Source of the DNA: Vulcanimicrobiales bacterium
Lineage (GTDB): Bacteria; Vulcanimicrobiota; Vulcanimicrobiia; Vulcanimicrobiales; Vulcanimicrobiaceae
Direction: 5' to 3'
Assembly: GCA_038231455.1 (NCBI GenBank)
Contig: JBBRLI010000003.1
Span: 1 to 64,000, forward strand
Length of the DNA stretch: 64,000 nt
Of this stretch, positions 6,065-27,406 are shown piece after piece. Each line of letters begins with the position of its first letter. The first letter of the stretch is position 1. The translations under genes and the position numbers were made by a program. A model generated the notes under the pieces. That model was given only the letters and a program-made list of their open reading frames with translations, ran no database searches and was not told where the DNA came from.

Positions 6065-6099
6065 GGGGACTGGGCGGCCCGACCGCCGATGTACCGTTC

Positions 6100-7925: not shown

Positions 7926-7928
7926 GAA

Positions 7929-8624: not shown

Positions 8625-8676
8625 CGCTTCCTCGAAACCCACTCCGTTACAGGAGAGTTTCGAGGAAGCAGGCGAG

Positions 8677-9966: not shown

Positions 9967-9970
9967 GCCG

Positions 9971-11548: not shown

Positions 11549-13399
11549 GTGGACGACTCCTCGCGAACCGACGGACCTAGCGGTATGGCCTCAGACATGC
11601 GTGGTTCCTCCGTTGGTCGCGGGGAAAACACTTTCGAAGATTCCGTCAACGGTCTCACGAGCACCGGTTTCGTTGAGTCTCTCTTTTTGCGTTCTCTCGA
11701 CGCCATCATGGTATACGACTGCGATGGGTTGGTGCGTCAAGCAAACCCCGCTGCCGAACAGTTGATGGGCGCAACGGAAGCGGAATTCGTGGAGACGAAA
11801 CTCGGCGACCGTTTGCACCCGGACGATATTGCACGAGCGCGCGAAGCGTTCGACCGCGCGCTGGACGATCGCACCACCGAGTTTGAGGGGCGCCTCCGTC
11901 GCGGCGACGGCTCGATGTTCGAAGCGGCGATCATGCTCATCCCGATCGCTAACGCGGGAAAAGTGACCGGCATCTGCGGGATCGCACGCGAAATCTCGGC
12001 GCGCAAAGACATCGAGCGTGCGCTCTTCGAGGCGACGCAAAAATTCCGCTCGCTCTTCGAGTACTATGACGATCCTGTTGCGCTCGTCGATCTCGAAGGT
12101 GCGATTACGGCGGTCAACGCGGCGACCTCGACGATGACGGGGCACTCGCCCGAAGACTTGCTCGATCGACCGTATACGGATCTCCTCGTGCCGATCAATC
12201 CGGAAGAAGCGCGGCAGCTCTTCCCGCGCATCGCGCACGTGCGCGCCGTCTCCACGCCCGCAGTGCTCTTGTCGCGCACGCAGCAAAAACTCGACGTGCT
12301 GCTCAAGGCGATTCCGGTGCTCGTCGACGAGCGTGTCGTCGGCGCCTATTTAATTGCGCACGATCTCACCGCGGAACGTTCGGCCGAGCGCGATGCTCGC
12401 GAGCAGGCCGAGCGCCTCCGTTCTCTCCACGCGGTGACGGTCTCGGCGGGTGCGACGGTCCTCGAACAATTGCACGCGACCCTCGATGCCGGACGGCTGC
12501 TCCTCGAGTGCGATTTTGCCTCGATCTCGATGCTCGAAGAAGACGATCTCGTCGTGCGTTACGCCAGCGGTTCGATTCACGGACTCGGCGTCGGATCGCG
12601 CGTCGGGGCGCACGAATCCTTCGTCGGACGCATCTTTACGATCGATGATGTGCTGATCGACGAAGACGTGAACGGTCACGACTTCGGCGCGCATGTCGAT
12701 GCACCGCAGGATGCGTTCAAATCGTATATCGGCGGACCGATCCGGCTGAAAGGCCGAACGGCCGGCTCGATCGCCTTCTTGCGTTCGACCGAACAAGAGC
12801 GTTTTCGAACGATCGATGTCGATCTGGTGCGGCTCGTCGGCGCGCTTTGCGCCTCGGCGATCGAACGGATCGAACATGAAGCCCGCCTCGATCAGTTGGC
12901 ATTCACCGATCCGCTCACGGGATTGCCGAACCGGTTGGTGCTCGACGATCGTCTGCGCTATGCAATCGCCACTTCACGCCGTCAGAAGCAGCGCTTCGCG
13001 CTGATGTTCCTCGATCTCGACCACTTCAAGTCGATCAACGATACGTACGGACACCTCGCGGGCGACGCCGTGCTGCGCGGTGTTGCGAGTCGCCTGCAAT
13101 ACGTGTTGCGCGATAGCGATACGGTCGCGCGCATCGGCGGCGATGAATTCGTCATCGTGCAGCCCAATATCGGCGCGACCTCGGATGTCTTCGACCTCTC
13201 GCGCCGTTTGCTCAGTGCCTTCGAAAAACCACTAACCGTCGACGGGCGCGAATTCCCGATCGGTGTGAGTATCGGCATTGCGATCTATCCGGACGATGCC
13301 GCTGATGCCTCCGCCTTACTCGAACGCGCGGACTCCGCACTCTATCGCTCCAAAGCCGACGGCCGCGGACGCGCGAGCGTTTTTACGACGGGTTCGTAA
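11549..13399 (+). CDS. PAS-PAS-GAF-GGDEF diguanylate cyclase
   Basis: Two PAS domains, a GAF domain, TDPLTGLPNR, DLDHFKSINDTYGH, and RDSD I-site followed by ARIGGDEF. Confidence 0.93.
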   Translation: MDDSSRTDGPSGMASDMRGSSVGRGENTFEDSVNGLTSTGFVESLFLRSLDAIMVYDCDGLVRQANPAAEQLMGATEAEFVETKLGDRLHPDDIARAREAFDRALDDRTTEFEGRLRRGDGSMFEAAIMLIPIANAGKVTGICGIAREISARKDIERALFEATQKFRSLFEYYDDPVALVDLEGAITAVNAATSTMTGHSPEDLLDRPYTDLLVPINPEEARQLFPRIAHVRAVSTPAVLLSRTQQKLDVLLKAIPVLVDERVVGAYLIAHDLTAERSAERDAREQAERLRSLHAVTVSAGATVLEQLHATLDAGRLLLECDFASISMLEEDDLVVRYASGSIHGLGVGSRVGAHESFVGRIFTIDDVLIDEDVNGHDFGAHVDAPQDAFKSYIGGPIRLKGRTAGSIAFLRSTEQERFRTIDVDLVRLVGALCASAIERIEHEARLDQLAFTDPLTGLPNRLVLDDRLRYAIATSRRQKQRFALMFLDLDHFKSINDTYGHLAGDAVLRGVASRLQYVLRDSDTVARIGGDEFVIVQPNIGATSDVFDLSRRLLSAFEKPLTVDGREFPIGVSIGIAIYPDDAADASALLERADSALYRSKADGRGRASVFTTGS

Positions 13400-14687
13400 T
13401 CGTCTGATAGACCGAGAGTAAGGTGATACTGCCGACGACGATCGCCGTCGCCCAGGCGATCGCGTTGAACGTTCGGCTGTTCTTGTACGTTCCCATCAGT
13501 GAGACTTTGTTTACGAGAATGATCATGAAGATCAAGAGAAACGGCAAGAGAACGCCGGAGAAAATCTGCGAGAAGTTGATGAGCCGTAGCAGTTGCTCCG
13601 TCGGGATGAGCATCACGAGCGTTGCGCCGATCGCAATCACCGCTGCGTAGAGCGAGAAGAAGACCGGTGCCTCGCTAAAGCGGTGATCGACGCCGCTTTC
13701 GAATCCGCCGGCTTCGCAGACGAAATACGCGGTCGAGAGCGGCAAGATCGACGCGGTAAAAATTCCGGCGTTGAGGATACCGAACGCAAAGAGAAACTGC
13801 GCGAAGTTGCCGGCCAGCGGTGCGAGCGCGCGTGCCGCGTCGGCAGCCACCGTGATCGTGATCGGATGCGCCGAGCCCACATTCGAGACGTAGATGGTCG
13901 CTGCCGTGCAGAGGATCATGAAGAATGACATGAAGTCCGTGACGAGGCAGCCGAAGATGACGTCGATGCGCGAGAGGGCATAGTCGCGCGCGCGGATGCC
14001 TTTCTCGACGATCGCGGCCTGGATGTAAAAACACATCCACGGTGAGATCGTCGTTCCGATGAGCGCGATGATCATCCAGAGATAGGACGAGTTGCCCTGC
14101 ACGGTCGGAATCAGAAATCCGCGCCACACGTCGTGCCAATGCGGCTGCGCTTTGAAGCCCGAGACCACGTAGGTAAAATACACCGCCGAGGCGCCGAGGA
14201 AGATGCGTTCGGTGATCTTGCGGTTGAGTCGCAACACCATAAAGAAGACGCCGATCGCGACGATCGGAACGGTAATGTAGTGACTGTTCGGCCGGAAGAT
14301 ATCCGAGGCCGTTGCGACACCGGCGAACTCTGCGGCTGTCGTAAAAATATTGGATCCGACGAATGCGACCATGACGAAGAACGTCCAGCGCACGCCGAAG
14401 TTCTCGCGGATGAGTCCGGCCAGCCCCTTGCCGGTAACGGCGCCCATGCGCGCGGCCATTTCTTGCACGACGATCAGCGCGATCGTGATCGGGATGAGCG
14501 TCCAGAGAATCGGGTAGCCAAATTGCGCACCCGCCTGCGAGTAGACGGTGATACCGCCGACATCGTTATCGGCGCTTGCGGTGATAATCCCCGGTCCTAA
14601 GATACCGAGAAAGAGCACGAGGCGCGCGCGCAGAGAGAGGCGTCGCGGCGAGCGGGCCGTCGCGATATCGGGGTTCGGCTGATTCAC
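13383..14687 (-). CDS. Nramp-family divalent cation transporter (Mg2+ NrmT-like)
   Basis: LGPGIITASADNDVGGI, QEMAARMGAVTGKGL and GTTISPW motifs. GTG start overlaps the upstream stop (GTGA). Confidence 0.88.
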   Translation of the reverse strand: MNQPNPDIATARSPRRLSLRARLVLFLGILGPGIITASADNDVGGITVYSQAGAQFGYPILWTLIPITIALIVVQEMAARMGAVTGKGLAGLIRENFGVRWTFFVMVAFVGSNIFTTAAEFAGVATASDIFRPNSHYITVPIVAIGVFFMVLRLNRKITERIFLGASAVYFTYVVSGFKAQPHWHDVWRGFLIPTVQGNSSYLWMIIALIGTTISPWMCFYIQAAIVEKGIRARDYALSRIDVIFGCLVTDFMSFFMILCTAATIYVSNVGSAHPITITVAADAARALAPLAGNFAQFLFAFGILNAGIFTASILPLSTAYFVCEAGGFESGVDHRFSEAPVFFSLYAAVIAIGATLVMLIPTEQLLRLINFSQIFSGVLLPFLLIFMIILVNKVSLMGTYKNSRTFNAIAWATAIVVGSITLLSVYQTITNPS

Positions 14688-15967
14688 GTCGGTTGCTTCC
14701 GCTGACGGTGCGTAAAGCGCGGCAGCCGGTTTTTGACTTTCTCGGGAATGATCGCGTCGATTGCATCGTCGACCGTGACGATGCCGAGCATGCGGTGGTT
14801 CGCGTCGACGACGGGACACGCAAGCAGATCGTACTGCGCGATCATCGCGGCGACGTCTTCGCCGGGTGTGAACGGACTTACGCTGACGATCTCGGTGTCC
14901 ATCACTTCACTGATCGACGTGTCGGGTGAGGAGAGCAACAGCGTTCGCAGCGAGAGAACGCCGAGCAGCGTTTTCTCGTGATCGGTGACGTAGAGGTAGT
15001 AGACGAACTCGCTTTCCGGGCCGATCTCGCGAATTTTCGCAATCGTCGCGCCGATCGTGCGATGCGGATAGATCCAGACATAGTCGGTCGTCATCAAGCC
15101 ACCGGCCGTGTCGTCTTCGTAGCGCACGAGATCCCGCAACTCGCCGGCCGTCTCGGGTTCCATCTCCGCGAGAAGCTCGGCCTGCTGTTCTGCGGGAAGA
15201 TCGCCGAGCAGATCGGCTGCGTCATCCGCGTCCATTTCTTCGATGATATCGGCGGCGCGCTCGGTGCCGAGATCCTCGAGAATCGAGCGCTGGGTATCGG
15301 CATCGAGATGTTCGAGCGCGTCGGCTGCCGTCTCGTCGTCGAGTTGACGCACGATGCGCGAGGCATCGCTTGCGGAGAGATCCGAGATGATCGCGGCAAG
15401 TTCGGAGGGATGGAGACGCGCGAGGCGATTCTCTTCGACTTCCAACCGGATTTGGTTCGGATTCATGTCGTCGATCGGCGCGACGTTGTTCCAGGCGATG
15501 ATCGTGCGCGGGACGCGATCGAGCAGGCGCGGTGAAAGTTTGCCGACGCCCATACGTCGCAGCAATCCGGAAAGGCCGATGTCCGCAGCGACGACGCGCA
15601 GCGCCCCGCCGGTCTGGGCGATCTCGATGTCGTTGATGCGCACGACTTTGCGACCGTGGACGTCGACGATCTGTTTGTCGAAGAGATCCTCGACGAGGAA
15701 GAGGGCTTCATCGGCGGCAGCCGTTGCGTTCGTCGGGGCCCGGGCGACGACGAGGTGGCCGTCGCGATCCACATCGACCACGTCCTCGATCGGTGCCACG
15801 CGGTTGCCGTCGCGCGTTTTTACAACGATGCTCGAGACCTTGGGGAAATGCTCACCCGGCTCGTTCACGACAAAATCGACGAGCCGCCCGACCGTCGTCG
15901 TGCGTTCGCCATCAACGATCACGCTGCGCCCGATGATCTCGGACAAGTAGCCGGACTGGAAGGGCAT
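14684..15967 (-). CDS. PRC-barrel/MgtE intracellular N-domain/CBS-pair protein without TM domain
   Basis: DKQIVDVHGRKVVRIND, acidic MgtE-N repeats, YEDDTAGGLMT, YYLYVTD and GIVTVDDAID. Confidence 0.88.
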   Translation of the reverse strand: MPFQSGYLSEIIGRSVIVDGERTTTVGRLVDFVVNEPGEHFPKVSSIVVKTRDGNRVAPIEDVVDVDRDGHLVVARAPTNATAAADEALFLVEDLFDKQIVDVHGRKVVRINDIEIAQTGGALRVVAADIGLSGLLRRMGVGKLSPRLLDRVPRTIIAWNNVAPIDDMNPNQIRLEVEENRLARLHPSELAAIISDLSASDASRIVRQLDDETAADALEHLDADTQRSILEDLGTERAADIIEEMDADDAADLLGDLPAEQQAELLAEMEPETAGELRDLVRYEDDTAGGLMTTDYVWIYPHRTIGATIAKIREIGPESEFVYYLYVTDHEKTLLGVLSLRTLLLSSPDTSISEVMDTEIVSVSPFTPGEDVAAMIAQYDLLACPVVDANHRMLGIVTVDDAIDAIIPEKVKNRLPRFTHRQRKQPT

Positions 15968-15990: not shown

Positions 15991-17331
15991 TTAGCGGCCT
16001 CCCCCAAAGAGCTTCAAAACATCTTGGGCGTTGAGGTTAACGGTCTTTAAGAGTTGGTTCTGAACGCTGACCAGAATCTGGTCTTTCGTATGCGCGGTCG
16101 CCTCGGCGGCTAAATTCGCATCGCGGATGTTACTCTCGCTTGCGGTGATGTTCACGCCCTGAAGTTCGTTGTTCGAAATCGCGTTCTCGACGGCGACCGT
16201 TTGCGCGCCGACCTGTGCGCGTGCGTAGCCGATTGCCTCTAAGGCCAGATCGATTCGATAGAGACCGTCCGTCGCGGCGGCATCGACGCTGGTCCCGGGC
16301 ACCGGCGGATTCGCCGTATCCGAGACGTCGGGTGTCGGATAGACCGAGACGTACGAAATCCCGAGCGCCGACGTGCTCACGTTCGGCAGACCGACCGGAA
16401 GCACGTCGCCTTCGACGTGGCCCGAACTTATCTGCAACGGTTGTCCGCCGTCGGGCGGCGTGTCGCGCACCGTCTGGAACGATTGCGCTACACCGACGTC
16501 GGCTTGCGAAAAGTTCGGCAGATCGAATTGGAGGATCGATTGCGCGGGTGTGCCTTGTGTTGTAATCGAGGCGCTTGGGATCGGGCCTACACCGGTCGCG
16601 AACGCTGAAGTTGCAACGATCTGCGGTCCGAACGCGGGATCTCCGCCGTACGCGATAACGTTGAGATAGATACCCGGGCCCGGAGGCACCACCGGAAGTC
16701 CGGTCGTCGGATCGAACGCGGGATTTTGATAGTCAGTGATTTTGAATTGAAGCCACGACGCCGAAACACCATTGCCGACCACGGGATTTGCGATCAACGG
16801 GCCAGGGTTACCGAAAGTATCGGCATCGGTCACGAACCGTGGCGGCAGCAGTCCGGTGGTCTCATCGAGCTTCGCGGGCCGCTCGATCACCGACGCGTTT
16901 TGCGCACCTTTGTTCGAGAGCGATCCGTCAAGCAAGCTGATATTGTTGAACTTCGCGTTACCCGAGATCCGATTGACCTCTTGGAGTAATTGAGTGACTT
17001 CCGTCTGGATGTCCGAGCGGTCGCCCGCGGAGGTGATGTCGGAGTTCGATTCGACCAAAAGCGTCCGAACGCGCTGGAGAATATCGGTCGTCGTCGAGAG
17101 CGCGCCGTCGCCGACGGTGAGCAGGTTGTTCGCGGTGCGCAGATTTTGGGCGCCCGTATCGACACCGCTCGCGAGCGCGCGAAGGCTCTCGGAGATCGCA
17201 AGGCCGCTCGGGTCGTCTTGAGCATTGTTAATGCGCAGACCGCTCGAGAGGCGTTCCGTTTCCGACTTCAGCCGCTGCTGCGTGATGTTGCTGTGGAGCG
17301 AGATTTCGTTCCCCAGCCGCGAGACGTCCAA
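15991..17331 (-). CDS. fliC: Flagellin (divergent)
   Basis: TTG 17331 after RBS AAGGGA. ERLSSGLRINNAQDDPSGLAISESLR, KFNNISLLDG, RAQVGA and SESNIRDANLA motifs. Confidence 0.88.
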   Translation of the reverse strand: MDVSRLGNEISLHSNITQQRLKSETERLSSGLRINNAQDDPSGLAISESLRALASGVDTGAQNLRTANNLLTVGDGALSTTTDILQRVRTLLVESNSDITSAGDRSDIQTEVTQLLQEVNRISGNAKFNNISLLDGSLSNKGAQNASVIERPAKLDETTGLLPPRFVTDADTFGNPGPLIANPVVGNGVSASWLQFKITDYQNPAFDPTTGLPVVPPGPGIYLNVIAYGGDPAFGPQIVATSAFATGVGPIPSASITTQGTPAQSILQFDLPNFSQADVGVAQSFQTVRDTPPDGGQPLQISSGHVEGDVLPVGLPNVSTSALGISYVSVYPTPDVSDTANPPVPGTSVDAAATDGLYRIDLALEAIGYARAQVGAQTVAVENAISNNELQGVNITASESNIRDANLAAEATAHTKDQILVSVQNQLLKTVNLNAQDVLKLFGGGR

Positions 17332-17360
17332 GTAATTCCCTTTGCACCGGTTCTCTTTAC

Positions 17361-17388
17361 GTGTCGGTCCTTTTTGCGTCCGACTTGA
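17361..17388 (-). promoter_or_regulatory. Putative sigma-28 promoter of flagellin (TCAA-N16-ACCGACAC)
   Basis: Resembles TAAA-N15-GCCGATAA and lies about 30 nt upstream of the flagellin start. Confidence 0.5.
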
Positions 17389-17464
17389 ATCCTCCGTGTA
17401 AGGAAGCAGCGTTTTTACGTTGTCTTGATAATGATACGGAGCCCAATCGTCGATGCATTGATGA

Positions 17465-20400
17465 ATGGGATCGCTCGGTCCACGGATGCGCGCTCGCTTG
17501 TATCGCTCCGGTTTATTGTGCCTGGCTCTCGCGCTGGTGATCCTTATCGCTCCGGCGGCGCGAGCATTTCCCGGTGCCGGTCCTATCGCGCGAGCGGTGA
17601 TGGTACTCGTGTCCGCCTCGCCGGCTCCGGTCCAGACGCCCGCGCCACGCGACACGTTCTTTGATAAACCGATTATCTTCGGCAACGATCCGGAGGTTGC
17701 TCCGAGCGCAAAGGCAAGCGCGGCGCCGACCCCGGTCGCACGTCGTCGCCGGGCGGAGGTTAAATTCGGACTTTCCGGCAGCGCGTCGTCGGGTGCCTCG
17801 GTCTCGAACTCCACGCATCAGTCGGCGAACGGCCAGACCTCAAATACCCTCGGACTTCAGGCATCGATCGAACGCCGGAGCGACCGCAGCGATCTGCGGC
17901 TATCGCTGCCTGCCTCGATCAATACGCGCGGGAGCTACATCGGCGCCGCGAACGCCGAATTCGTGACTTCGCGCGGCGTCTTCTCGTATGGATTTCTGTC
18001 GCTCACTCCTTTCGGGTCGCTCCCGTTTTCGCCGATCGATCGCGCCTACTCGTTCGCGCGTCCGCTCGGTCGGGGAGCCGAGCTTTCTCTTTTCTCGGGG
18101 TCCAGCATCTTTGAGGGATCGCGCGCGTTCGATACAACCGGCATGCGCTACCGACGAGGATTCCGCCGCGGAATCGGGTCGATTGAGGGGTTTCAGGCGC
18201 GTGCAACCGACGGGAATGGTTTTGCAAACGTCCTGCTCGGCGGTTTCGCGAGCCGACCCAATCGATTGACCGTGGCGAGTGAATTTGCGCTCGAGCAATT
18301 GCATTCACTTGGCGATGTCAGCGATGGTGGCGCGTTTGCCTACCAAATGCGGGGCGACTACGCGCTGCCGTTCGCCGATCTCACGATCACGAAACGTTTT
18401 GTGACCGATCGTTTTATCGGCCTTGGCGGGACCGGCGGCCGACCAGAGTCGCTTACGCAGGCCGGCTTGCGAACGGCGGTCGGCCGAACCCAAATCGACG
18501 TGCAAACGACGTTTGATTTGCTCTTTGCAACCTCACTCCAGAGCGCGAGCAATGAACGACGACACGGCTTGACGCTTTCTCGTCCGATCGGCGCGTTCGC
18601 CGTGGGGCTGTCGCTCGCCGACGATCAAAACATCAGTGAAACGGCGACGACGTGGAGCGGGAACGGGTCGCAGAGCCTGGGATTTACAACGCGCGGCTTC
18701 ACCGTGATCGAGAGCCTGCAAGGGACGCGATCGACATCGACGGGTACGACGCCTTCCTCGAGTGTAACGGGCGGAATTGACATTTTCAAACCGACGCGCG
18801 CTGCGACGTTACAAGCGCAGTTTTCACGGACGCATCAAACAGGTGAGGGCAATTCGGGTCTGGTCGACACCGCGATGGTGGGCGCATCGCGAACCGAGCG
18901 GCGCTATCTCTTCGGCATCTCGGACACGCTAACGCGCACGACGCAACTTGCAAACGTGCAAACCACCAATGCGACGACGGTCTCGTTTGGACGGAAACTC
19001 TTCCGCGACGTCCTCGTGCAAGTCCAGTACGGTCGCCAAACCGTTCGCAGCACGTCCGCGCATTCCAACGGAACTTCGTCGCTGCTGAATTTTTCAGTCG
19101 GAGCTCCCTTTGCTCTTGGATCGGCCGGCACGATCGGGAAGCCCGACCCGCGAGCGCCCGCGACGATTCTTGGAACCGTGAACGACGAGGCCGTCGATCC
19201 GCAGTTTGCGAGTTCACTCGGTGGCGGGGTCGCTAATCTTGCCGTGACGCTCGACGGAATCGAGACGCAGCACACGGACGCACGTGGTCGATTCCAGTTC
19301 CGTTTCGTCACTCCCGGGCGCCACGAAGTTCGGATTGAACCGGCCGATCTTCCGCGCGGGTACACCGTCAACTATCCGTTCGTCACGATCAATGTAGCCG
19401 GCGGCCAAACGGCGCAGATCGGTATGAGCATCGGCGGTACGAGCGGGGCGATCGCCGGGCGGATCGCGCAGAAACTCACCAGCGGTCAAGATCGCGGTGT
19501 CGAAAATGTCGCGGTCCGCCTCGACGGCGGCGATATCGCGATTACGGGCCCGCTCGGCGATTTTGGTTTCGGGCGACTTAAGCCCGGTCCCCATTCGCTC
19601 GAAGTGCTGGACGCCTCGCTCCCGGCGGACCTCCAGCTTGTCGATCGGAAGCGGACGGTCGCAACGCAAGCCGGCGTGACGTCACGCGCCGACTTCTTCA
19701 GCGCCGCGCTCGGTTCGATCAGCGGAAAGCTTGTCGCAAGCGCTGCTGGGAGAGACGTCCCCGACGGTCCCATCGCAAATGCGTATGTGGTCGCAAACCC
19801 GGGCGAGCGCGCCGTCATCTCAAACGAAGACGGCACGTATACGATTGACAACTTGCCTGCTGGAACGTATACGCTCGCCGTCGATGCCGACTCACTTCCG
19901 CCGGATACCGATGCGAACGACGGCGCGCGCACGGTCGAAGTTCACTCGGGCGAACGGATCGAGGGCGTGCTTTTCACGATCGGCGAGAAGCTACGCGCGA
20001 TCGACTTTACGTTTTCAGCCGGTTCAAAAGAAACGCCGCTCTCTCTCAGTCTTGCCGCAAGGAAGCTTCCGCCTGGCGGCGTCACTGGCGTCACTGCGCG
20101 TGTAAGCGCAAACGTGGCCGAAGTCACGTTGCGGGCATTCGGCAACACGGTCGCCCTGATAAAAACGGGGAAGCAGAACATCTATAGCGGTCGCTTGGTC
20201 GTTCCATTCGATGCAAAGCCAGGCGTCGTAAACGTTATCGCCTCGATCGGTGGAGCACATCCCACGACCGCCAGTGCAACCGTCGAAGTTGACAAAAGTC
20301 TGCCTCTGGTTCGCGTCGATATCGATCCCAGGCGCCCGGCTATCGGACAGTATGTCCGCGTCCGTGCAGGTTTCATCGCCGATGTATCACCCGGCGATGT

Positions 20401-20548
20401 CATCACCTGGCAAGACGGAACGACGACGAAAATCCCCGTGTTTACGGGCTTGCGCATTGCCACATTCACCGTAAAGGTTAGCGCAGTTCCGTTCCACGGA
20501 ATTATACGCACCAAAACTTTACCGATTCCAATTACGATCGGCATGTAA
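17465..20548 (+). CDS. Putative outer-membrane usher-like protein with three carboxypeptidase-regulatory/SdrD-B-like repeats
   Basis: Signal peptide, about 500 aa of amphipathic Ser/Thr/Gly-rich beta strands, then repeats TDARGRFQFRFVTPGRHEV, TGPLGDFGFGRLKPGPHSL and SNEDGTYTIDNLPAGTYTL, and a C-terminal Ig-like region. Confidence 0.65.
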   Translation: MGSLGPRMRARLYRSGLLCLALALVILIAPAARAFPGAGPIARAVMVLVSASPAPVQTPAPRDTFFDKPIIFGNDPEVAPSAKASAAPTPVARRRRAEVKFGLSGSASSGASVSNSTHQSANGQTSNTLGLQASIERRSDRSDLRLSLPASINTRGSYIGAANAEFVTSRGVFSYGFLSLTPFGSLPFSPIDRAYSFARPLGRGAELSLFSGSSIFEGSRAFDTTGMRYRRGFRRGIGSIEGFQARATDGNGFANVLLGGFASRPNRLTVASEFALEQLHSLGDVSDGGAFAYQMRGDYALPFADLTITKRFVTDRFIGLGGTGGRPESLTQAGLRTAVGRTQIDVQTTFDLLFATSLQSASNERRHGLTLSRPIGAFAVGLSLADDQNISETATTWSGNGSQSLGFTTRGFTVIESLQGTRSTSTGTTPSSSVTGGIDIFKPTRAATLQAQFSRTHQTGEGNSGLVDTAMVGASRTERRYLFGISDTLTRTTQLANVQTTNATTVSFGRKLFRDVLVQVQYGRQTVRSTSAHSNGTSSLLNFSVGAPFALGSAGTIGKPDPRAPATILGTVNDEAVDPQFASSLGGGVANLAVTLDGIETQHTDARGRFQFRFVTPGRHEVRIEPADLPRGYTVNYPFVTINVAGGQTAQIGMSIGGTSGAIAGRIAQKLTSGQDRGVENVAVRLDGGDIAITGPLGDFGFGRLKPGPHSLEVLDASLPADLQLVDRKRTVATQAGVTSRADFFSAALGSISGKLVASAAGRDVPDGPIANAYVVANPGERAVISNEDGTYTIDNLPAGTYTLAVDADSLPPDTDANDGARTVEVHSGERIEGVLFTIGEKLRAIDFTFSAGSKETPLSLSLAARKLPPGGVTGVTARVSANVAEVTLRAFGNTVALIKTGKQNIYSGRLVVPFDAKPGVVNVIASIGGAHPTTASATVEVDKSLPLVRVDIDPRRPAIGQYVRVRAGFIADVSPGDVITWQDGTTTKIPVFTGLRIATFTVKVSAVPFHGIIRTKTLPIPITIGM

Positions 20549-20553
20549 CCGAA

Positions 20554-20580
20554 TCAAGTTCTCCGCTCGCTTGCCGATGC
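20554..20580 (+). promoter_or_regulatory. Putative sigma-28 promoter (TCAA-N15-GCCGATGC)
   Basis: Close match to the FliA/SigD consensus with the exact 15-nt spacer, in the gap before the major pilin-like gene. Confidence 0.7.
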
Positions 20581-20638
20581 TAACAGTGGACAACACGCAG
20601 CGACTCGAGTTCGAGCGCTCACACCGAAAGGATTCTCC

Positions 20639-21352
20639 GTGAAGAAGCTACTCTCGATCGCCGCGGCCCTCATCGCCATCGGCGCAGTTGCCTCCCCGTC
20701 CTATGCGGCCGTTACCTCAAGCGCCGCGGTCACCGTGAAGTGGAACGTCCAAGTCAACGCAACGCTCACGCTGGCAACCAACTACGATAACACCGGGACG
20801 TTCAACGCGGTCCTCCATACGATCGACGTCAATGCCAACGGGGGCACGGGTACGTGCGCCGGCGCTGGTGCCGTGACCGGCATCGTCGACTACGGTAACG
20901 TCACGACGGACCCGGCGAAAGTCACCTGGTGCGGATACGAAAATGCCGTCGTTGCTAAGGCGATCACGAACAGCTCGATTGCGGCCGGCTGGAACATCAG
21001 CCAGGCTCTCGCAGCGATCCCAACCGGCGGTTTCACAATCTGCCCCATCGGCAACGGTGGCCTCGCAGGCTTCGGCGCCGCGGCAGCACCGGCCACGTAC
21101 ACGGCAGCCACGGCATTCAATGCGGCAAACCAAACTGCAGCATTCGGCGCGACGACGGCCTGCACGGGTACCTCACTCGGCGGCGCGGCTGGCCTCACGG
21201 CAGCCGCCACCAACATCGCAAGTTCGCAGTTCGTCGGCGCAACGCCGGCTGCCGGGTCGTTCTTCGGTGAAGGCTACGTCCTCGGCGTCCCGGCAAACGC
21301 CGCGGCCGGCGCGCAAACCATCACCGTCAACTACGTCCTCACGGCAAACTAG
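20639..21352 (+). CDS. Putative major pilin/fimbrial subunit
   Basis: RBS GAAAGGA, Sec signal, Ala/Gly/Thr-rich sequence, N-terminal strand AAVTVKWNVQ, VDYGNV, GWNI, 4 Cys, and C-terminal strand TITVNYVLTAN. Confidence 0.7.
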   Translation: MKKLLSIAAALIAIGAVASPSYAAVTSSAAVTVKWNVQVNATLTLATNYDNTGTFNAVLHTIDVNANGGTGTCAGAGAVTGIVDYGNVTTDPAKVTWCGYENAVVAKAITNSSIAAGWNISQALAAIPTGGFTICPIGNGGLAGFGAAAAPATYTAATAFNAANQTAAFGATTACTGTSLGGAAGLTAAATNIASSQFVGATPAAGSFFGEGYVLGVPANAAAGAQTITVNYVLTAN

Positions 21353-21361
21353 TTCGGAGGC

Positions 21362-21396
21362 GGAAGGTGCCGCCGCGTAGGCGCACGGCACCTTTC
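21362..21396 (+). terminator. Stem-loop after the major pilin (terminator or mRNA-stabilising hairpin)
   Basis: GGAAGGTGCCG (21362-21372) pairs with CGGCACCTTTC (21386-21396). No long U tail. Confidence 0.5.
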
Positions 21397-21415
21397 TGCC
21401 GATGATACTAGTAAT

Positions 21416-22204
21416 ATGAGAACTACGCTGACGGCCGCCTTCATCGGCGCCGTACTCGCTCTCGTCCCGGTCGGCTCGAGCGCCGAACTTGGACTCGACG
21501 TCTCACCGGCAAAACTCGAGATCGTCTTCACCCCCGGCTCGTCCTACAATCTCCCGGTGACGGTTCACAACAACGGCCAAGCCGCGGTTCACGTCCTCAC
21601 CTCGATGTCGGACTTTACGCTGAATCTTGCCGGCGATTATCAGTTCACGAAGCCCGGGACGAACGCATACTCGCTCATGAAGTACGCGACGGTCAACCCT
21701 CGCGAATTCGATCTGCCGGCCGATCAATCGCAACAAGTTCGGCTCACGATCACGATCCCGAACTCGTCCACGATCAGTGGCGAATTTCCCGGAGTCGTCT
21801 TCTTTCAAACGCGACCCGAGCGCCACGGTGGTATCGGGGTTGCGTTCTCCGCCAAAATTGCAACGAAGATCTACGCGCAAATAAAAGATACGGTCAAAGC
21901 GAGCGGTCGGGTTGAGAAATTCTCAACCGAACGCAGCGGCCCCGGCCAACTCTACCGCGTGATGTTCCATAACACCGGAAACGGTCATGTCTACCTCAAC
22001 GGCCGCGTCGAAGTTCGCAAAGCAGGCGTCCTCGTCGAAAAAGTACCGATCGGTCCGAGTCTGCTCGTCGAGCGCGGCGGTGAACGACTGATGGAAATCC
22101 CCGGCAAGAAACTCGAACCCGGCCACTACGACGCGATCGCCGCGGTCGACTACGGTGGCGAGAAATTAGTTGGCGGTCAATTGGCGTTCGACGTAGCGCC
22201 GTAG
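21416..22204 (+). CDS. Putative pilus assembly chaperone (PapD/DUF916-like, two Ig domains)
   Basis: Signal peptide, LDVSPAKLEI, VTVHNNG, VNPREFDL...QQVRLTI and FHNTGNGHV motifs. Confidence 0.75.
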   Translation: MRTTLTAAFIGAVLALVPVGSSAELGLDVSPAKLEIVFTPGSSYNLPVTVHNNGQAAVHVLTSMSDFTLNLAGDYQFTKPGTNAYSLMKYATVNPREFDLPADQSQQVRLTITIPNSSTISGEFPGVVFFQTRPERHGGIGVAFSAKIATKIYAQIKDTVKASGRVEKFSTERSGPGQLYRVMFHNTGNGHVYLNGRVEVRKAGVLVEKVPIGPSLLVERGGERLMEIPGKKLEPGHYDAIAAVDYGGEKLVGGQLAFDVAP

Positions 22205-22233
22205 ACCACGAGCGGCACACGGAGGGCCGAAGC

Positions 22234-22908
22234 ATGATGAGCAAAGCAAACCGCACGATCGTCGCCCTCGGCTTCGCCGCAGCGCTCGGTCTCCTACCGG
22301 CGCTCGCGCAGGCAGCCCCGACAACGGTGAACGGATCGGCAACCGCGCACTGGAAAGTGCAACCCACGCTCAAGTTCACGCTCACGCCCAACTATGCCAG
22401 CGGCTTCGGGACGGTCAAAGCCGTGTTCGGCGCGCAGCCCGCACCCGCTCCGGGCGGCGGCGCAGCATTCGGCGCTGGCGCCGTGGATTTCGGCAACGTG
22501 CAAGCCGGCACGAACTATCTCTATAAATATGCCGCGCATTTGAATGTGATTTCGAACGCCCCCGGATTCAACGTCTACGGTGAAGGAACGGCCGACTTCA
22601 CCGGGACCGGCGCGAACACGGGCAGTATCTTGCCGATCAATCAGACCATCTTCTTTTTGAAGTCGACGGACGGCGTCACGCCGGATTCCAATACCGGCTA
22701 TTCACCCGCGCAACCGTTCTCCGCGACCGGCGCTGCGGGTGCCACGTATAACAATCCGGCGATCACCTACACGACATACCCGATGCCGCTTTTCATGTCT
22801 CCAATGGGTGCCGGCGATCTCTATTATGACTACCAGTTGAAGGTCAATAGTGGCGCCAATCTTGGAACCTACTTCGTCTATGTGACGTACACGGTCGTTA
22901 CGACATGA
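22234..22908 (+). CDS. Putative minor pilin subunit
   Basis: Signal peptide, SATAHWKVQPTL, VDFGNV, and C-terminal GTYFVYVTYTVVTT. Confidence 0.65.
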   Translation: MMSKANRTIVALGFAAALGLLPALAQAAPTTVNGSATAHWKVQPTLKFTLTPNYASGFGTVKAVFGAQPAPAPGGGAAFGAGAVDFGNVQAGTNYLYKYAAHLNVISNAPGFNVYGEGTADFTGTGANTGSILPINQTIFFLKSTDGVTPDSNTGYSPAQPFSATGAAGATYNNPAITYTTYPMPLFMSPMGAGDLYYDYQLKVNSGANLGTYFVYVTYTVVTT

Positions 22909-23552
22909 TCCATCGCCGCCGCTGGACGAGCGGCGTTCTTGCGATGCTTGCGCTGTGCCTCGGGCTGCCACGAAGCGCCGATGCCGCCTTCATTCAAGTG
23001 CAGCGCACGCAAGCGGCGATCTACATTTTGGTCAACGTCGCGCCGGCGCCCCTCGCTCGCCGCCCGGATCCGCGGGCGATCGCCTACGAAGGCGCGCCAT
23101 TTGACGTCGCGCAAGTGCAGAAGCAAAAGGGCATTCCCGTCCAGGCGAACGTCATCGCCAACCCGTACGGCAACTTGCTCACAACGAGTACCAACACGCT
23201 CGTCTATTCGCAGACGGCGGGAACGACGGTTCTCTATCCGTGCGCTTATCATGTCAAAGTGACGACCGCGATTGCGTCGTGGACGCTCTACACCGGCCTC
23301 TCGAACGACTTCGATCCTTCGTTTAACGGCAACGATCTCTCGTGGGTCGATTATCCAGGCGCGCCGCCGACGCCGCCCGCGACACCCGTCTTCCAAATTT
23401 TTCGCGTCTATCCCGACAACAACAATGCGTGGCAAGCCGACCGTCGCGGGTCGGGGAACTACGATGAGTGCGTCGACCTCTCGCTTGCGATACCCGCTTC
23501 TGTCCCGGGCGGTTCGTATTCGAGTAACGCGATTTACTCGATCTATTACTGA
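22905..23552 (+). CDS. Putative minor pilin-like subunit
   Basis: ATGA-coupled, signal peptide, ASWTLY, Cys pair, and C-terminal PGGSYSSNAIYSIYY. Confidence 0.6.
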   Translation: MIHRRRWTSGVLAMLALCLGLPRSADAAFIQVQRTQAAIYILVNVAPAPLARRPDPRAIAYEGAPFDVAQVQKQKGIPVQANVIANPYGNLLTTSTNTLVYSQTAGTTVLYPCAYHVKVTTAIASWTLYTGLSNDFDPSFNGNDLSWVDYPGAPPTPPATPVFQIFRVYPDNNNAWQADRRGSGNYDECVDLSLAIPASVPGGSYSSNAIYSIYY

Positions 23553-26500
23553 TGCGTAACCTTCGGATCTTCTTGCTCGTCGCGATCGCATTCGTGGCCT
23601 CGGTGCTGGCTGCAAAAGCAACCGTCCAGCAGATTATCGTTCCGGCGCGAGCCGTTGCCACGGCAACATCTGCTCCGCTGCCGAGTCCTTCTCCGGGCAG
23701 CATTCTGCGCACGTTTTCGACGCCGCAACCGCGGGCTTCAGCGGAAGCCGTCATTCCGCGCCCGCAACCGCCGCGATCGAGCGGACGGAACACGAGCGGT
23801 GCCGTCCGCTATATCCATTCGGCGACAGGATCGGACATACAAATCACCTACGTCTCGGGTTGCGGCGGCGGCGCGTATCCCGGCATCGTTCCCGTCAACT
23901 GCCAGATCACGTGGAAGCCGATCAATGTTTCGGCCCCGAACGGTCACGATTGCTTCTATGCGCCGTTCTACAATAACGCGGCCGCAGCCGATGGTTCTGC
24001 TAACTGTCAGAACGGGAACAGCGGCGTCGCGCATACGATTACCTTGTTCATTCAGGGGACGTGGATATTAGGTTCGTTCAATAAAGTAACGAATCGTTGG
24101 GACGAACTTGCCTTTATCACCGTCGGTACGCCGCCGACGATCGGCACGTACGATAGCTCCGCGGATACGACCCCGCAGTCGAGTTTCATCGCGAACGGTT
24201 CGAATACGGTGTACTTTGCGGCCACCGGTCTGATCACGCTCGATAAAATCGTCTTCGACATCAGCTACGCGTCGCTCAAAGGCAACTGCGTCTATATGTT
24301 GGGCGGCGTTTCAGCGGATGGCTACGGCGGGTGTAATCCCTTTGCAAATCCCGGCGTGAATGCTGCCGGCGGACAGGCAAACGCAAGTTGGACGCCGCCC
24401 CCCGGCACGCCGACGGGAACCTATATTCTCACCGTCACCGATATCAGTCAGGGTATTCGACTCGCCTCGCGACAATTTTCGATCGTCTCGAGCGGTACTC
24501 CGCCGACGGTCACGTTTGTCCCCGGAGGCGGCAATCCGTCGCCGGCGCCTGCATTTACTACGCCACCGAGTACGGATCTCGGATCGTATGCCTACGATGG
24601 CAACGATGCATCGACTTCGAAAATTACGGTGAAGACAACCGCTCCGCTTTTGACGCCTACCTCGACCTATATTCGAACGTTCTCGGATCCAAACGGCATT
24701 ATCAATAACAATTTTGGACTGACGACGAATGCCCTCACTGACGGGACGGGGAAAATCGCCGATGCGACACTGACCCTTGCCGTCGCGCAGACTCCGCTCA
24801 ACTTTTCCACCCCAACGTACACGTATTCGCTGCTCGGTCCGCTTGCAACAGGGCCAATCGTCTTCGCGAACTCGTTTCAAATTCTCGGGTATGCAATGTC
24901 GACCCAGTTTCTCAATCCACAAGGGACGGCTTTAACGGTCGGGACGGGCACGGCGACCAGCAGCCTGCAATTCACCAATACGAGCGACACCGTCTATGGG
25001 TCGGGCAACGGCGATCTGATTCAGTTCATGGAACTCAAAACAGCCGGTGACGGATCGGTCATCTCGCTGAATTGCGGGGCGCTTTGCACATCGGAAATCG
25101 TGAGCGATTCAGCGGGCAATCTGTGGACGGCAAGCGTTACGCTAACGGGCGCGACGTATCGCCTCTTCCTCGCGCCCCAAGCGAATGCGCTGCCCGTGGG
25201 GGCGACCTTGACGGTTCCCAACATGACGTGGACCGGACCCGTGACGAACTGCGGCGTAGCCGGCTGCAAACTCACGACGTCATTCGTTCCACAACACGGC
25301 CTAACGTGGACCGACACCACGAAGAATGCGTCGAACCCGGTTTACCTGGTCGATAACGGCGCCGTCTCGCCCTCGGCGACCGGCAGCATCGTGTTGGTCG
25401 GTAACGAGGCTCACGGATACACACCGCGATCCACGCAGTCCTTTTACGAGTACGCCCAGCCTTTTGCGCAGACGCAACAGCTCTCGCTCAAATACACGCT
25501 CACCAACGTCAACAGCGGCGGCATCAACCTTAAAGCGTTCCGATTGACCATGCCGGTCGGTTTTCTCTACAGCACCATGACGGTCTCAGCCGGCGGAACG
25601 GCTGCATGGGCATCGGATGCGGCCTCTTGCTCGGGCCTCGCTTCGAACGTTTTTTGCTTCAAATCAGCGGCCGGTATCGCCGCAGCCGTGACCGATTCTG
25701 TTACGTTTAGCGTCGATGCCCCAAAGGTCGCTTTCTCCTATACCGACGTGCTGGGTCAAGTCACGAGTCCCGGTAACTACGGAATTACCGCGGCGAATAC
25801 ACCATCGCAAAAAACGATCGAAGTCGGTCCATCGAATCCGTATCTGGTCGATACGACGGCACTCGGCTCGTATTCGCTCAACGCGACCTTGATGACGTTC
25901 GGTGTGTCATCGACCGGAGCCGGGCCGACGTACGCAATGACGGTCAACTATACAAATACGTCGTCGTCCGCCGACCCGTTTCCCGACTATGTCGATGCGC
26001 TTCTCCTCCAAGTTATTAACGGTGCTGGCGCGTTTTCCGCAATCACGACGAGTAGCGCGGGCTTTACCTATGAAGGCCCTGCGCAGACAAATCAGGGCAG
26101 CGCATATTTAGGTGGCTCGAACGCCGATGACTACTGGTTCGGCACGTGCGTCGCGCAACGTGCCAGCGCCCAGCCATTCTTCGGGAACGTCACGCCGTGT
26201 ACGTTAGCGCAAGAACAAAATTCGATTGCACCGGGTGGTGCGCTTACGATCAATGCGACGTACACCGACGCAACCGGACAATCGACGGCGATCCTCTGGG
26301 CACATGGCGCGAATTCGAACGGCTGGGCGGCGTACTACATCAATTTGCCGCTGAGTGGTTCGGCGGCGTACGGCGGATTTCAGGCGGTCGGAACGTACGG
26401 TGCTCCAACCACGTTGTCCTCAGGGACGGTGCCGACGATTGGACTCGATACGGACCCGACCAAAGGGAATTCGTATGTGTACCGTTTCAACAATCAATCC

Positions 26501-27406
26501 GGTGCCAATGTCGCACAATTCAGTATTCAAATTCCGGGACTGGACAACGGCGGCTCAAATGCTATCGATACCGAGACGACACCCGTCCCCTGGACGTTGA
26601 CCACCACGCCGTCCTTTGCCGCAACCGGTTCGAGCGGGACCAACTACGGCTGTGTCTATAACCGATCGGCTTCAGCGACGACCGGCGGCGTGTCGGGCGG
26701 AATCCTCATCACCGGCTGTACCATTCCGGTCGGTGGCTGGGTCGATGTCGCCTTTGCGATGAAAGGCCCGTATAATGCGGGCGACAAGTACACGTTCACC
26801 TCGCAATATACGACGAAGGTGGCGAGTCCGTGCAGTACCACGGTGCCGTACCCGTGCGCCAACAACGGAGCGACGACCGAGCAATGGATCGGCGATCAGT
26901 CGATCACCAACGTTCTCGCCGCGAATCTGTCGATTGTCGTTAATCCCGGTGCGATTACCGGGTCCACGCCGGTCGTCGTTTGCGCCGGTTGCACGTTCAC
27001 CGCGAACTCGATCGATTTTGGGACGATTGTTTCGGATAACACAACGCACAACTACAGCGATGTCGTGCGTGTCGATCTCACCACCAATGCCTCGGCGCCG
27101 GAAGGCTGGAAGCTCTACGAATCCGTCGCTACCAACCCTACCAACGTCTCCGGCGCGCCGACAAACGAACTCCAGACGCTCTTCGATGCGACGCATTCCA
27201 ATCCGACGGGTGGTGCACTCACGTACACGACCGTCGCAACGGTCGTTCCGACCAGCGGCAATGGCGCGCTGATGGTTCAGACCGGTGGGACGAACGCGCA
27301 GCGAACCGCGTTCAATATGATCGATTCGTTCGCTCTGAACGTGGCCGCAGGCGATGCGCTGGGCGCACGCACACCCGCCGTCACCTTCTTATTTATCGCG
27401 AACTAA
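23552..27406 (+). CDS. Large Cys-rich beta-sandwich adhesin with C-terminal pilin-like domain
   Basis: TGATG-coupled, signal peptide, Thr/Ser/Gly/Asn-rich, many Cys, and a C-terminal domain IDFGTI...GWKLY...AVTFLFIAN. Confidence 0.7.
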   Translation: MRNLRIFLLVAIAFVASVLAAKATVQQIIVPARAVATATSAPLPSPSPGSILRTFSTPQPRASAEAVIPRPQPPRSSGRNTSGAVRYIHSATGSDIQITYVSGCGGGAYPGIVPVNCQITWKPINVSAPNGHDCFYAPFYNNAAAADGSANCQNGNSGVAHTITLFIQGTWILGSFNKVTNRWDELAFITVGTPPTIGTYDSSADTTPQSSFIANGSNTVYFAATGLITLDKIVFDISYASLKGNCVYMLGGVSADGYGGCNPFANPGVNAAGGQANASWTPPPGTPTGTYILTVTDISQGIRLASRQFSIVSSGTPPTVTFVPGGGNPSPAPAFTTPPSTDLGSYAYDGNDASTSKITVKTTAPLLTPTSTYIRTFSDPNGIINNNFGLTTNALTDGTGKIADATLTLAVAQTPLNFSTPTYTYSLLGPLATGPIVFANSFQILGYAMSTQFLNPQGTALTVGTGTATSSLQFTNTSDTVYGSGNGDLIQFMELKTAGDGSVISLNCGALCTSEIVSDSAGNLWTASVTLTGATYRLFLAPQANALPVGATLTVPNMTWTGPVTNCGVAGCKLTTSFVPQHGLTWTDTTKNASNPVYLVDNGAVSPSATGSIVLVGNEAHGYTPRSTQSFYEYAQPFAQTQQLSLKYTLTNVNSGGINLKAFRLTMPVGFLYSTMTVSAGGTAAWASDAASCSGLASNVFCFKSAAGIAAAVTDSVTFSVDAPKVAFSYTDVLGQVTSPGNYGITAANTPSQKTIEVGPSNPYLVDTTALGSYSLNATLMTFGVSSTGAGPTYAMTVNYTNTSSSADPFPDYVDALLLQVINGAGAFSAITTSSAGFTYEGPAQTNQGSAYLGGSNADDYWFGTCVAQRASAQPFFGNVTPCTLAQEQNSIAPGGALTINATYTDATGQSTAILWAHGANSNGWAAYYINLPLSGSAAYGGFQAVGTYGAPTTLSSGTVPTIGLDTDPTKGNSYVYRFNNQSGANVAQFSIQIPGLDNGGSNAIDTETTPVPWTLTTTPSFAATGSSGTNYGCVYNRSASATTGGVSGGILITGCTIPVGGWVDVAFAMKGPYNAGDKYTFTSQYTTKVASPCSTTVPYPCANNGATTEQWIGDQSITNVLAANLSIVVNPGAITGSTPVVVCAGCTFTANSIDFGTIVSDNTTHNYSDVVRVDLTTNASAPEGWKLYESVATNPTNVSGAPTNELQTLFDATHSNPTGGALTYTTVATVVPTSGNGALMVQTGGTNAQRTAFNMIDSFALNVAAGDALGARTPAVTFLFIAN

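Follow-up and report, generated by a model that had tools for sequence, protein, structure and literature searches.

Introduction

The surface systems that come closest to the locus considered in this work are the WxL clusters and the chaperone-usher (CU) pili. According to a preprint of 2026, the Elr WxL clusters are chaperone-guided donor-strand-exchange pili, in which the donor strands follow the consensus [S/T]-x-[G/A]-x-[V/I]-x-F, and the WxL chaperones make up a sequence family that is disjoint from the chaperones of the CU systems (bioRxiv 10.64898/2026.10.17.759780). The screen described in the preprint, which combined the Pfam models PF06030, PF11797, and PF13731 at gathering scores and was based upon one RefSeq proteome per genus, was positive for 48 of 4,698 genera, and these belong without exception to the Bacillota (bioRxiv 10.64898/2026.10.17.759780). 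The subject of this report is an operon of six genes (P1 to P6) at positions 17465-27406 of a 64,000-nucleotide stretch (the whole of which is referred to here as the window) from contig JBBRLI010000003.1 of the Vulcanimicrobiales bacterium assembly GCA_038231455.1, which belongs to the phylum Eremiobacterota (Vulcanimicrobiota). This locus would fail the above screen on two of its three Pfam models. In a full-text literature search covering the main articles, we found no paper on a chaperone of the WxL-interacting protein (WxLIP) type that works with an outer-membrane usher, nor on such a system in the Eremiobacterota.

Our favored reading, to which we assign a probability of roughly 70%, is that the six genes specify a donor-strand-exchange pilus of the chaperone-usher type, built from parts of the WxL-pilus type, in an uncultured soil or sediment member of the Eremiobacterota that has two membranes. 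An earlier note on this DNA, made without database searches, had proposed a pilus assembly pathway that joins features of the CU and WxL/DUF916 systems, and the evidence from P3, P1, and the subunits that is presented below bears this out. A strong full-length match to an already described pilus family, which the same note had named as an observation that would refute its reading, was not found.

General characteristics of the locus

The genome from which the window derives is 3.71 Mb in size (106 contigs, 93.67% complete). It encodes Omp85/BamA, and thin-section electron microscopy of the one species of the phylum in culture revealed an outer membrane with lipopolysaccharide (PMC9758169); the proteins P1-P6 are therefore made in a double-membraned cell. 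The genes, as given by the list of open reading frames (ORFs), and the regions within them that are discussed below are as follows.

17465-20548, + strand: P1, 1027 aa, putative divergent outer-membrane usher (ORF list)
20639-21352, + strand: P2, 237 aa, candidate major subunit (ORF list)
21416-22204, + strand: P3, 262 aa, soluble periplasmic WxLIP (DUF916)-type chaperone with two beta-sandwich domains
22234-22908, + strand: P4, 224 aa, subunit paralogue
22905-23552, + strand: P5, 215 aa, divergent subunit paralogue, candidate adaptor or terminator
23552-27406, + strand: P6, 1284 aa, candidate tip adhesin
17756-19117, + strand: barrel region of the P1 model, aa 98-551, with 24 strands of at least 10 residues by DSSP and three short strands at aa 156-178
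19160-20539, + strand: C-terminal beta-sandwich domains of P1, aa 566-841 (three CarboxypepD_reg-like) and aa 859-1025 (two more), from Pfam, structure model, and hhalign
20708-20746, + strand: N-terminal extension of P2, aa 24-36, with the donor-strand-like motif G29-x-V31-x-V33-x-W35-N36 (column counts)
21821-21868, + strand: predicted donor (G1) strand of P3, aa 136-151, from the P3-P4 complex model
26999-27403, + strand: C-terminal subunit (pilin-type) domain of P6, from hhalign to the P2 and P4 families

Each of the six ORFs opens with charged residues followed by a hydrophobic stretch resembling a signal peptide (Kyte-Doolittle 12-mer maxima of 2.4-3.5 within the first 40 residues), and a second hydrophobic segment above the membrane-helix threshold of 1.6 is absent from all of them. 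Intergenic gaps of 90, 63, and 29 nt are present between P1 and P2, P2 and P3, and P3 and P4, respectively. As the ORFs of P4 and P5 overlap by 4 nt and those of P5 and P6 by 1 nt, the last three genes are considered to be translationally coupled. The public gene call for P1 begins at M46 (982 aa; positions 17465-17599 are skipped) and loses the signal peptide; the start at 17465 is favored because the longer ORF adds this signal peptide and because the homologues of P1 are 999-1076 aa in length. In Pfam searches, P1 showed three CarboxypepD_reg stretches (E 5.4e-15) and SdrD_B (1.2e-7), P2, P4, P5, and P6 had no match at E <= 1, and none of P1-P6 could be assigned to an NCBIfam family. W-x-L-like motifs are present in P2 (GWNI), P5 (SWTL), and P6 (GWKL), with P4 having GFNV instead. 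The description of the locus in the earlier note as six co-oriented, secreted proteins, the first with three prealbumin/SdrD-B-like repeats and the last three from coupled genes, was therefore accurate in each of these respects.

P3 is a soluble chaperone of the WxLIP type

For the analysis of P3, a profile of 36 of its relatives (A1) was used. The AlphaFold2 (AF2) model of P3 based upon this profile consists of two beta-sandwich domains with a mean predicted local distance difference test (pLDDT) score of 90.1. The top Foldseek matches of this model are to the WxL-interacting protein of Enterococcus faecium (9i1y, 9i25; E 3e-12 to 1e-11), and these are followed, from 9e-10, by CfaA, CsuC, Caf1M, FimC, and other pilus chaperones. 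In a structural comparison, the Z score of WxLIP exceeded that of the highest-ranking CU chaperone by 3.5, with 231 of the 251 residues aligned and the whole protein covered. In its sequence, P3 matches WxLIP_PGBD (DUF916, PF06030) at 27.7 bits, which is a small margin over the gathering cut-off of 27.3, and at 29.4 bits in a six-frame search of the genome. The same model matches 29 of the 36 relatives (E <= 0.01), and PapD_N (PF00345) matches none of these 36 at the same threshold. WxLIP_HBD (PF11797) was not found in P3 (E <= 1), in the 36 relatives (E <= 0.01), or in the genome (E <= 10), but the second domain of P3 still superposes on that of WxLIP despite this. Among the relatives, V29 and P31 are invariant, NNG at positions 52-54 is conserved, and N186, G188, and N189 vary little or not at all. 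The motifs VSP...NNG...NTGN, which the earlier note had listed for P3 as a two-domain chaperone-like protein, are thus present and conserved, and the combination of CU and WxL/DUF916 features that it proposed for the pathway agrees with the ranking of the structural neighbors and the DUF916 match. A membrane anchor, sought beyond the signal peptide as a 19-residue segment with a hydrophobicity above 1.6, was found in 0 of 116 members of the P3 family.

The P3 family also shows a remote relationship to canonical pilus chaperones. When its profile was compared with an alignment of 17 PapD_N chaperones from the same phylum, a match of 96.3% was obtained by hhalign (E 1.7e-9), extending over 215 columns and both domains, whereas twelve mismatched profile pairs that served as controls gave 0.1-12.1%. 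This match is significant only with the 17-sequence alignment, as the genome's own PapD-like chaperone taken as a single sequence gave 23.6%. A search of the Protein Data Bank (PDB) sequences with the P3 profile yielded nothing meaningful. The chaperone fold of P3 and its affinity to WxLIP are evident from these results, and P3 is a soluble, WxLIP-type member of a wider superfamily of pilus chaperones.

Distant paralogues of P3 (E 1e-19 to 1e-24 against A1) are also present in other Eremiobacterota genomes, in five loci (L083-L087) that represent different types of clusters. Three of them, L083 (8930-13076), L084 (7779-19016), and L086, encode small unannotated proteins together with a protein of 720-760 aa that ends in a CarboxypepD_reg-like domain, and L084 contains in addition a second chaperone and Big_2-rich giant proteins. 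These clusters were considered as a bridge between the present operon and other systems and rejected: the similarity of their partner proteins to P1 is confined to the CarboxypepD_reg-like domain (66-86%), the values against the canonical usher are 1.2% or less, and their small proteins show weak matches or none to the subunit profiles, with L084_207 giving the highest value (63.7%, to the P2 family).

The subunit family and the predicted P3-P4 complex

The relationships among P2, P4, P5, and P6 were examined using alignments of the P4 family (A3, 65 homologues), the P2 family (A4, 58 homologues), P5 (A5), and the C-terminus of P6 (A6, 49 sequences). The P2 and P4 families are homologous (hhalign 99.1%, E 9e-19), and P5 matches the P4 family over the C-terminal 134 columns (A5 against A3; 94.6%, E 7e-8). 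The last ~135 residues of P6 match the P2 family at 95.9% (A6 against A4; E 5e-9) and the P4 family at 87.5% (A6 against A3). The 49-sequence alignment is needed for this, since the P6 C-terminus as a single sequence gave 10.9% against the P4 profile. P6 and P2 also have in common the C-terminal ending ...T-x-[LF]-[TI]-A-N, and the C-terminal domain of P6 contains a nearly invariant W-x-L, of which W161 and L163 are each conserved in at least 90% of the sequences in A6. The N-terminal ~1100 aa of P6 gave no match to a family in Pfam or NCBIfam.

The small subunits carry an N-terminal strand resembling the Elr donor strand. In the P2 family, the motif G-x-V-x-V-x-W-N is highly conserved (among 58 sequences G is present in 40, the two V in 49 and 45, W in 56, and N in 54), and in the N-terminal extension of P4 (aa 28-42) the corresponding motif is G34-x-[VTA]36-x-[VLI]38-x-[W/Y]40, with W in 51 and Y in 14 of 65 sequences; the N-terminal strand of P5 is all-aliphatic and amphipathic. 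Both the paralogy of the subunits and the conservation of this strand are clearly shown by these alignments. The spacing of the internal motifs is also similar to that in the WxL proteins: 117 (P2) and 111 (P4) residues precede the first motif, [WF]-x-[IV], and 114 and 107 separate the two, as compared with ~110 and ~106 for the small WxL proteins (PMC9772566). The second motif in P2 and P4 is [YF]-x-[LVF], not W-x-L. The P2 family is the most variable (mean column identity 31% in A4), and it contains four conserved Cys, of which C73, C98, and C135 are invariant. Fimbrial and SCPU Pfam models matched none of the 65 and 58 homologues of P4 and P2. PDB sequence and profile searches with P4, P2, the P6 C-terminus, and P6 gave nothing meaningful; neither a WxL chain nor the TLP-1 fibrils (9IKJ, 9IKK) were among the matches. 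By language-model features, the neighbors of P4 are unnamed families of 200-235 aa (0.96-0.97), mostly from Melainabacteria and Acidobacteriota, which hints that the subunit family extends beyond the Eremiobacterota; the nearest named family is WxL (0.93, 175 shared features), followed by SCPU (0.91), which serves as a lead only. A lipoprotein anchor for P5 was considered and rejected, since its relatives do not consistently share the Cys of the signal region.

An indication of how P3 and the subunits may interact comes from the predicted complex of mature P3 and P4. With their own alignments, the two proteins gave an ipSAE score of 0.75 (0.73, 0.77, and 0.75 in individual runs), in comparison to 0.01 for the best control. 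Among 157 solved complexes, 116 attained this score, as did only 2 among 215 mismatched pairs; these counts are a rough guide since own alignments were used here. The runs agree in at least 73% of the contacts, and the pLDDT of the partner is at least 76. In this model, residues 24-34 and 136-151 of P3 contact residues 43-52 and 211-224 of P4. Residues 144-147 of P3 pair in parallel and in register with 217-221 of P4, residue 146 also touches 48 and 50 of P4, and residues 27-30 pair with 46-48. The N-terminal extension of P4 (aa 28-42) lies outside the interface except for residue 37. The predicted geometry is that of donor-strand complementation. Together, the conserved N-terminal strand and the predicted completion of P4 by the G1 strand of P3 agree with the role as pilus subunits that the earlier note had proposed for these proteins.

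The usher-like protein P1

Ushers have a 24-stranded barrel. The AF2 model of P1, which is based upon 83 sequences (pLDDT 84.3), comprises a signal peptide (~aa 1-34), a disordered Pro-rich linker (~aa 35-97), a barrel with the strand composition listed above, and five beta-sandwich domains, and the last strand of the barrel ends in a nearly invariant P-F-x-F-G. The transmembrane beta-barrel for which the earlier note had suggested looking in 17465-20548 is therefore found in this model. Its first eight Foldseek matches are all FimD chains (E 2e-15 to 4e-13, over ~753-778 columns), with PapC at 2.5e-12.

For profile comparisons, we collected 20 canonical ushers of Eremiobacterota from the 16 of 151 phylum genomes that carry one. 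The whole P1 profile matched these ushers at 97.2% by hhalign (E 4.2e-11, 230 columns), and residues 502-738 of P1 are collinear with 521-763 of the genome's own usher, a region that consists of the last barrel strands and the two C-terminal domains CTD1 and CTD2. The C-terminal part of P1 alone gave 94.8% (E 5e-8), and the barrel alone 22.8% (E 9e-4). As in the case of P3, significance is reached only with the alignment, here of 20 sequences; the genome's own single usher sequence gave 30%. When residues 46-575 of P1 were searched by HMMER over 1.84 billion representatives, only 32 proteins were found. As most of these are ~1000 aa in length, this barrel family appears to occur only as a P1-type protein. 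The models and profile comparisons taken together show a barrel-plus-domains architecture for P1, and they identify canonical ushers and chaperones as remote homologues of P1 and P3, respectively. We read P1 as a deeply divergent usher, with three extra C-terminal domains and with no visible N-terminal domain or plug. The description of P1 in the earlier note as a barrel-like protein without a recognizable PapC motif is borne out by the model, by the rank of FimD and PapC among its neighbors, and by the failure of the Pfam Usher model to match it. This does not extend to P1 being unrelated to ushers, as the profile link at the barrel end and the first two C-terminal domains shows.

A canonical sigma-type CU locus is present elsewhere in the same genome (contig 13, positions 6007-10056), consisting of an SCPU pilin, a PapD_N chaperone, a 766-aa Usher protein, and a second SCPU protein. 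Its Pfam matches are SCPU 1.7e-28, PapD_N 3.9e-10, and Usher 3.9e-20, the last with a weak C-terminal CarboxypepD_reg-like match.

The remote homology of P1 and P3 to the ushers and PapD-like chaperones of the phylum, and the label "P pilus assembly chaperone PapD" that the Joint Genome Institute (JGI) attaches to some P3 relatives, would also be expected if the operon were a very divergent classical (archaic, sigma-type) CU pilus, whose likeness to the WxL/DUF916 proteins arose by chance from shared immunoglobulin (Ig)-like folds. We regard this as quite unlikely. The sigma-type locus of the genome was found by Pfam at once, whereas P1-P6 gave none of SCPU, PapD_N, and Usher; P3 is closest to WxLIP over its whole length and PF06030 recognizes most of its relatives; the subunit profiles matched an SCPU alignment at 5.3% or less; and small subunits accompanied by a giant protein with a C-terminal subunit domain constitute the layout of a WxL cluster.

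Conservation and distribution of the operon

The named relatives of P3 are nearly all from Eremiobacterota (Baltobacteraceae, Velthaea, Aquilonibacter, Elarobacter); a few are labelled only as "bacterium" or as of Acidobacteria type (Acidoferrales). In a species-level genome collection 114 relatives were found, of which the best 80 loci were taken, and gene presence in these was called by BLASTP at E <= 1e-5. The counts that follow refer to the 43 of these 80 loci with at least 9 kb on both sides (full-context loci), the 37 with shorter flanks being left out. P1, P3, P6, and a P4-type subunit occur together on one strand in 43 of 43 loci; P5 is present in 33, P2 in 28, and all six genes in 25. 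P2 is probably under-detected in the relatives, being fast-evolving. The gene order P1-P2-P3-P4-P5-P6 is found in 19 loci, P1-P3-P6-P4 in six, P1-P6-P2-P3-P4-P5 and P1-P6-P3-P4-P5 in five each, and five rarer orders together account for the remaining eight. In an even sample of the phylum, a P3 relative (E <= 1e-5) is present in 122 of 401 genomes (~30%), including 73 of 247 high-quality genomes, and in 37 of 116 genera. Almost all of these are from one family (116/296), with two other families contributing 4/5 and 1/30. Five of the positive genomes (G370, G212, G247, G263, and G359) are flagged as unpublished, and the tally without them is 117/396. One of the loci (L058, 6955-20694) carries two chaperone genes and three tandem genes for P6-like giant proteins, with no P1 within the 20.7 kb fetched.

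The six loci with only P1-P3-P6-P4, and the combination of three different small subunits with a single 1284-aa protein, for which the present results do not indicate homopolymerisation, are also compatible with a short surface-display complex, in which P1 would export and anchor P6 on a stalk of one to three subunits as a static platform. The WxL clusters were long read as such platforms, as two sources relate (PMC9772566; bioRxiv 10.64898/2026.10.17.759780). We consider a static platform unlikely in the present case, because the Elr WxL cluster itself is reported in the preprint to polymerise by donor-strand exchange (bioRxiv 10.64898/2026.10.17.759780), P2 and P4 retain a donor-like N-terminal strand with a terminal aromatic residue of the kind that drives polymerisation in Elr and CU pili, and the high variability of P2 is expected of an exposed, repeating rod subunit.

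The constant association of P1 with P3, P6, and a subunit, which holds across three gene orders, bears in turn on the role of P1. The barrel-only match of P1 to ushers, which is not significant, and the lack of a visible N-terminal domain or plug could be taken to mean that P1 is a porin, tether, or uptake channel that merely shares the operon, with the small proteins being periplasmic or reaching the surface in some other manner. In view of this linkage, the rarity of the barrel family, and the collinearity of the barrel end and the first two C-terminal domains with CTD1 and CTD2 of ushers, this is highly improbable.

A number of observations nevertheless weigh against the interpretation of the operon as a usher-equipped pilus of WxL-type parts. 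Pfam Usher (PF00577) is not found in P1 at E <= 1, and a search of the whole genome with this model detects only the contig-13 locus. No folded domain precedes the barrel in the P1 model (aa 42-92 have pLDDT < 50), where an usher N-terminal domain was not seen, and no plug-sized insert is evident, the only insert being ~37 aa, with a plug from another part of the protein being possible. Part of the significant match of P1 to ushers falls within a CarboxypepD_reg-like domain, a fold of wide occurrence, and may represent a generic domain signal. The Pfam WxL model (PF13731) matched 0 of 65 P4 and 0 of 58 P2 homologues at E <= 10 and nothing in the genome, and the incomplete Ig/WxL fold that we suggest for the subunits is derived from the predicted complex interface, the motifs, and the feature-based lead. 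The score of the P3-P4 complex may in part represent recall by the prediction method, as chaperone-subunit complexes are common among solved structures. Lastly, all of the results come from metagenome-assembled genomes and from predictions.

Proposed mechanism and significance

Based upon these results, the following pathway may be suggested. All six proteins would be exported by Sec, as their signal peptides indicate. In the periplasm, soluble P3 is predicted to complete the incomplete fold of each subunit by inserting its G1 strand (aa ~140-151) in parallel between the first and last strands of the subunit. P1, whose putative barrel has 24 long strands and would be inserted by the beta-barrel assembly machinery (BAM), and whose C-terminal domains are of the usher type, would take the chaperone-subunit complexes, and its fold, remote homology, and strict linkage suggest that the fibre leaves through its lumen. 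As in Elr and CU pili, donor-strand exchange would then follow, with each incoming subunit displacing the P3 strand by its own conserved N-terminal strand (G-x-V-x-V-x-W). P6, which has a subunit domain only at its C-terminus, would be incorporated first as a tip adhesin, P5 and P4 may be minor components or adaptors, and P2, which is variable and bears disulfides, may form the rod; only the order of the genes and their variability suggest this arrangement. What we infer from the parts thus comprises the passage of the fibre through P1, the exchange of donor strands, the subunit order, and an adhesive role of P6.

The proposal of the earlier note that the system was undescribed stands for its double-membrane, usher-equipped form and not otherwise. 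In this form, the locus would link the CU and WxL pathways, which were thought to be separate. The locus and its relatives in ~30% of the sampled Eremiobacterota genomes would carry WxLIP-type chaperones into a double-membraned phylum, in which the chaperone is a soluble protein with no membrane anchor and is accompanied by a very divergent usher of its own. More tentatively, it is possible that the pathway is of double-membrane origin, with WxL-like subunits, a WxLIP-type chaperone that still shows homology to PapD, and an usher that still shows it to FimD/PapC, and that the single-membrane WxL/Elr systems were derived from such an ancestor within the Terrabacteria by loss of the usher and gain of a membrane anchor and sortase attachment. 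A common origin of the two pathways becomes directly testable with these loci. P1 also offers for mechanistic work what may be a minimal usher, and the operon is a candidate adhesion organelle for an abundant, almost uncultured phylum of soil and peat. Under standard annotation by Pfam and NCBIfam, its subunits are left without a name and P1 is recognized only through its repeat domains.

Genes adjoining the operon

Upstream of P1 and divergent from it lies a flagellin gene (Flagellin_N, Flagellin_C; 15991-17814, - strand), in which the Flagellin_N match starts from residue 175 of a long ORF. Flagellin and flagella are reported to be missing from the single cultivated member of the phylum (PMC9758169). 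On the other side, the operon is bounded by a convergent ABC transporter. Beyond the flagellin gene (13383-15967, - strand), an Nramp transporter adjoins a 427-aa protein with MgtE_N and CBS and no match to the MgtE membrane domain. The composition of the region is unremarkable (GC 0.57-0.62 vs. 0.57-0.66 for the whole window), and scans of it for promoters and terminators gave counts not above those for shuffled sequence. No RNA run containing the stretch is listed; one sediment-metagenome DNA run contains it.

Comparison with described pilus systems

The Elr/WxL pilus of Enterococcus faecalis and the WxL-WxLIP (Csc) clusters of the Bacillota (PMC10599100; PMC9772566) resemble the present locus in having small subunits and a giant protein with a C-terminal subunit domain, in an N-terminal donor strand that ends in an aromatic residue, and in a predicted chaperone strand that is parallel to the last strand of the subunit, with residues 140-151 of P3 corresponding to 141-152 of ElrE. 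They differ from it in several respects. As reported in the preprint, 96.7% of the WxL chaperones have a C-terminal membrane helix (bioRxiv 10.64898/2026.10.17.759780), compared to none of the 116 members of the P3 family. PF11797 and PF13731, two of the models of the WxL screen, are both unmatched by the present locus. WxL/Elr proteins are anchored by LPxTG and sortase, whereas in the 93.67% complete host genome no sortase was found and P1-P6 have no sorting signal at their C-termini. The present host also has an outer membrane, for which the operon adds a dedicated usher-like barrel.

With the classical and archaic CU systems (Fim/Pap; Csu, sigma-type SCPU), the locus shares a soluble two-domain chaperone without a membrane anchor, a barrel of usher size that is followed by beta-sandwich domains, remote homology for both chaperone and usher, and subunits with an N-terminal extension together with an adhesin that has a C-terminal pilin domain. 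It differs from them in that the Usher, PapD_N, and SCPU models do not match it, in that the N-terminal domain and plug of ushers were not seen in P1, and in that P1 has five C-terminal domains in place of the two in CU ushers. Additionally, P2, P4, and P5 are unrelated in sequence to SCPU and are ~60-80 aa longer than the genome's own two SCPU pilins.

The Pam pili of Candidate Phyla Radiation (CPR) bacteria, which were found recently, are likewise donor-strand pili with PapD/FimC-like chaperones in non-classical hosts (PMC13278184). Unlike those of the present locus, their chaperones have a C-terminal membrane helix and they work with no usher, and their pilins are of two domains and are reported as exclusive to the CPR. 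By this description they are set apart from the system of the Eremiobacterota, in which a soluble WxLIP-type chaperone is combined with a putative usher.

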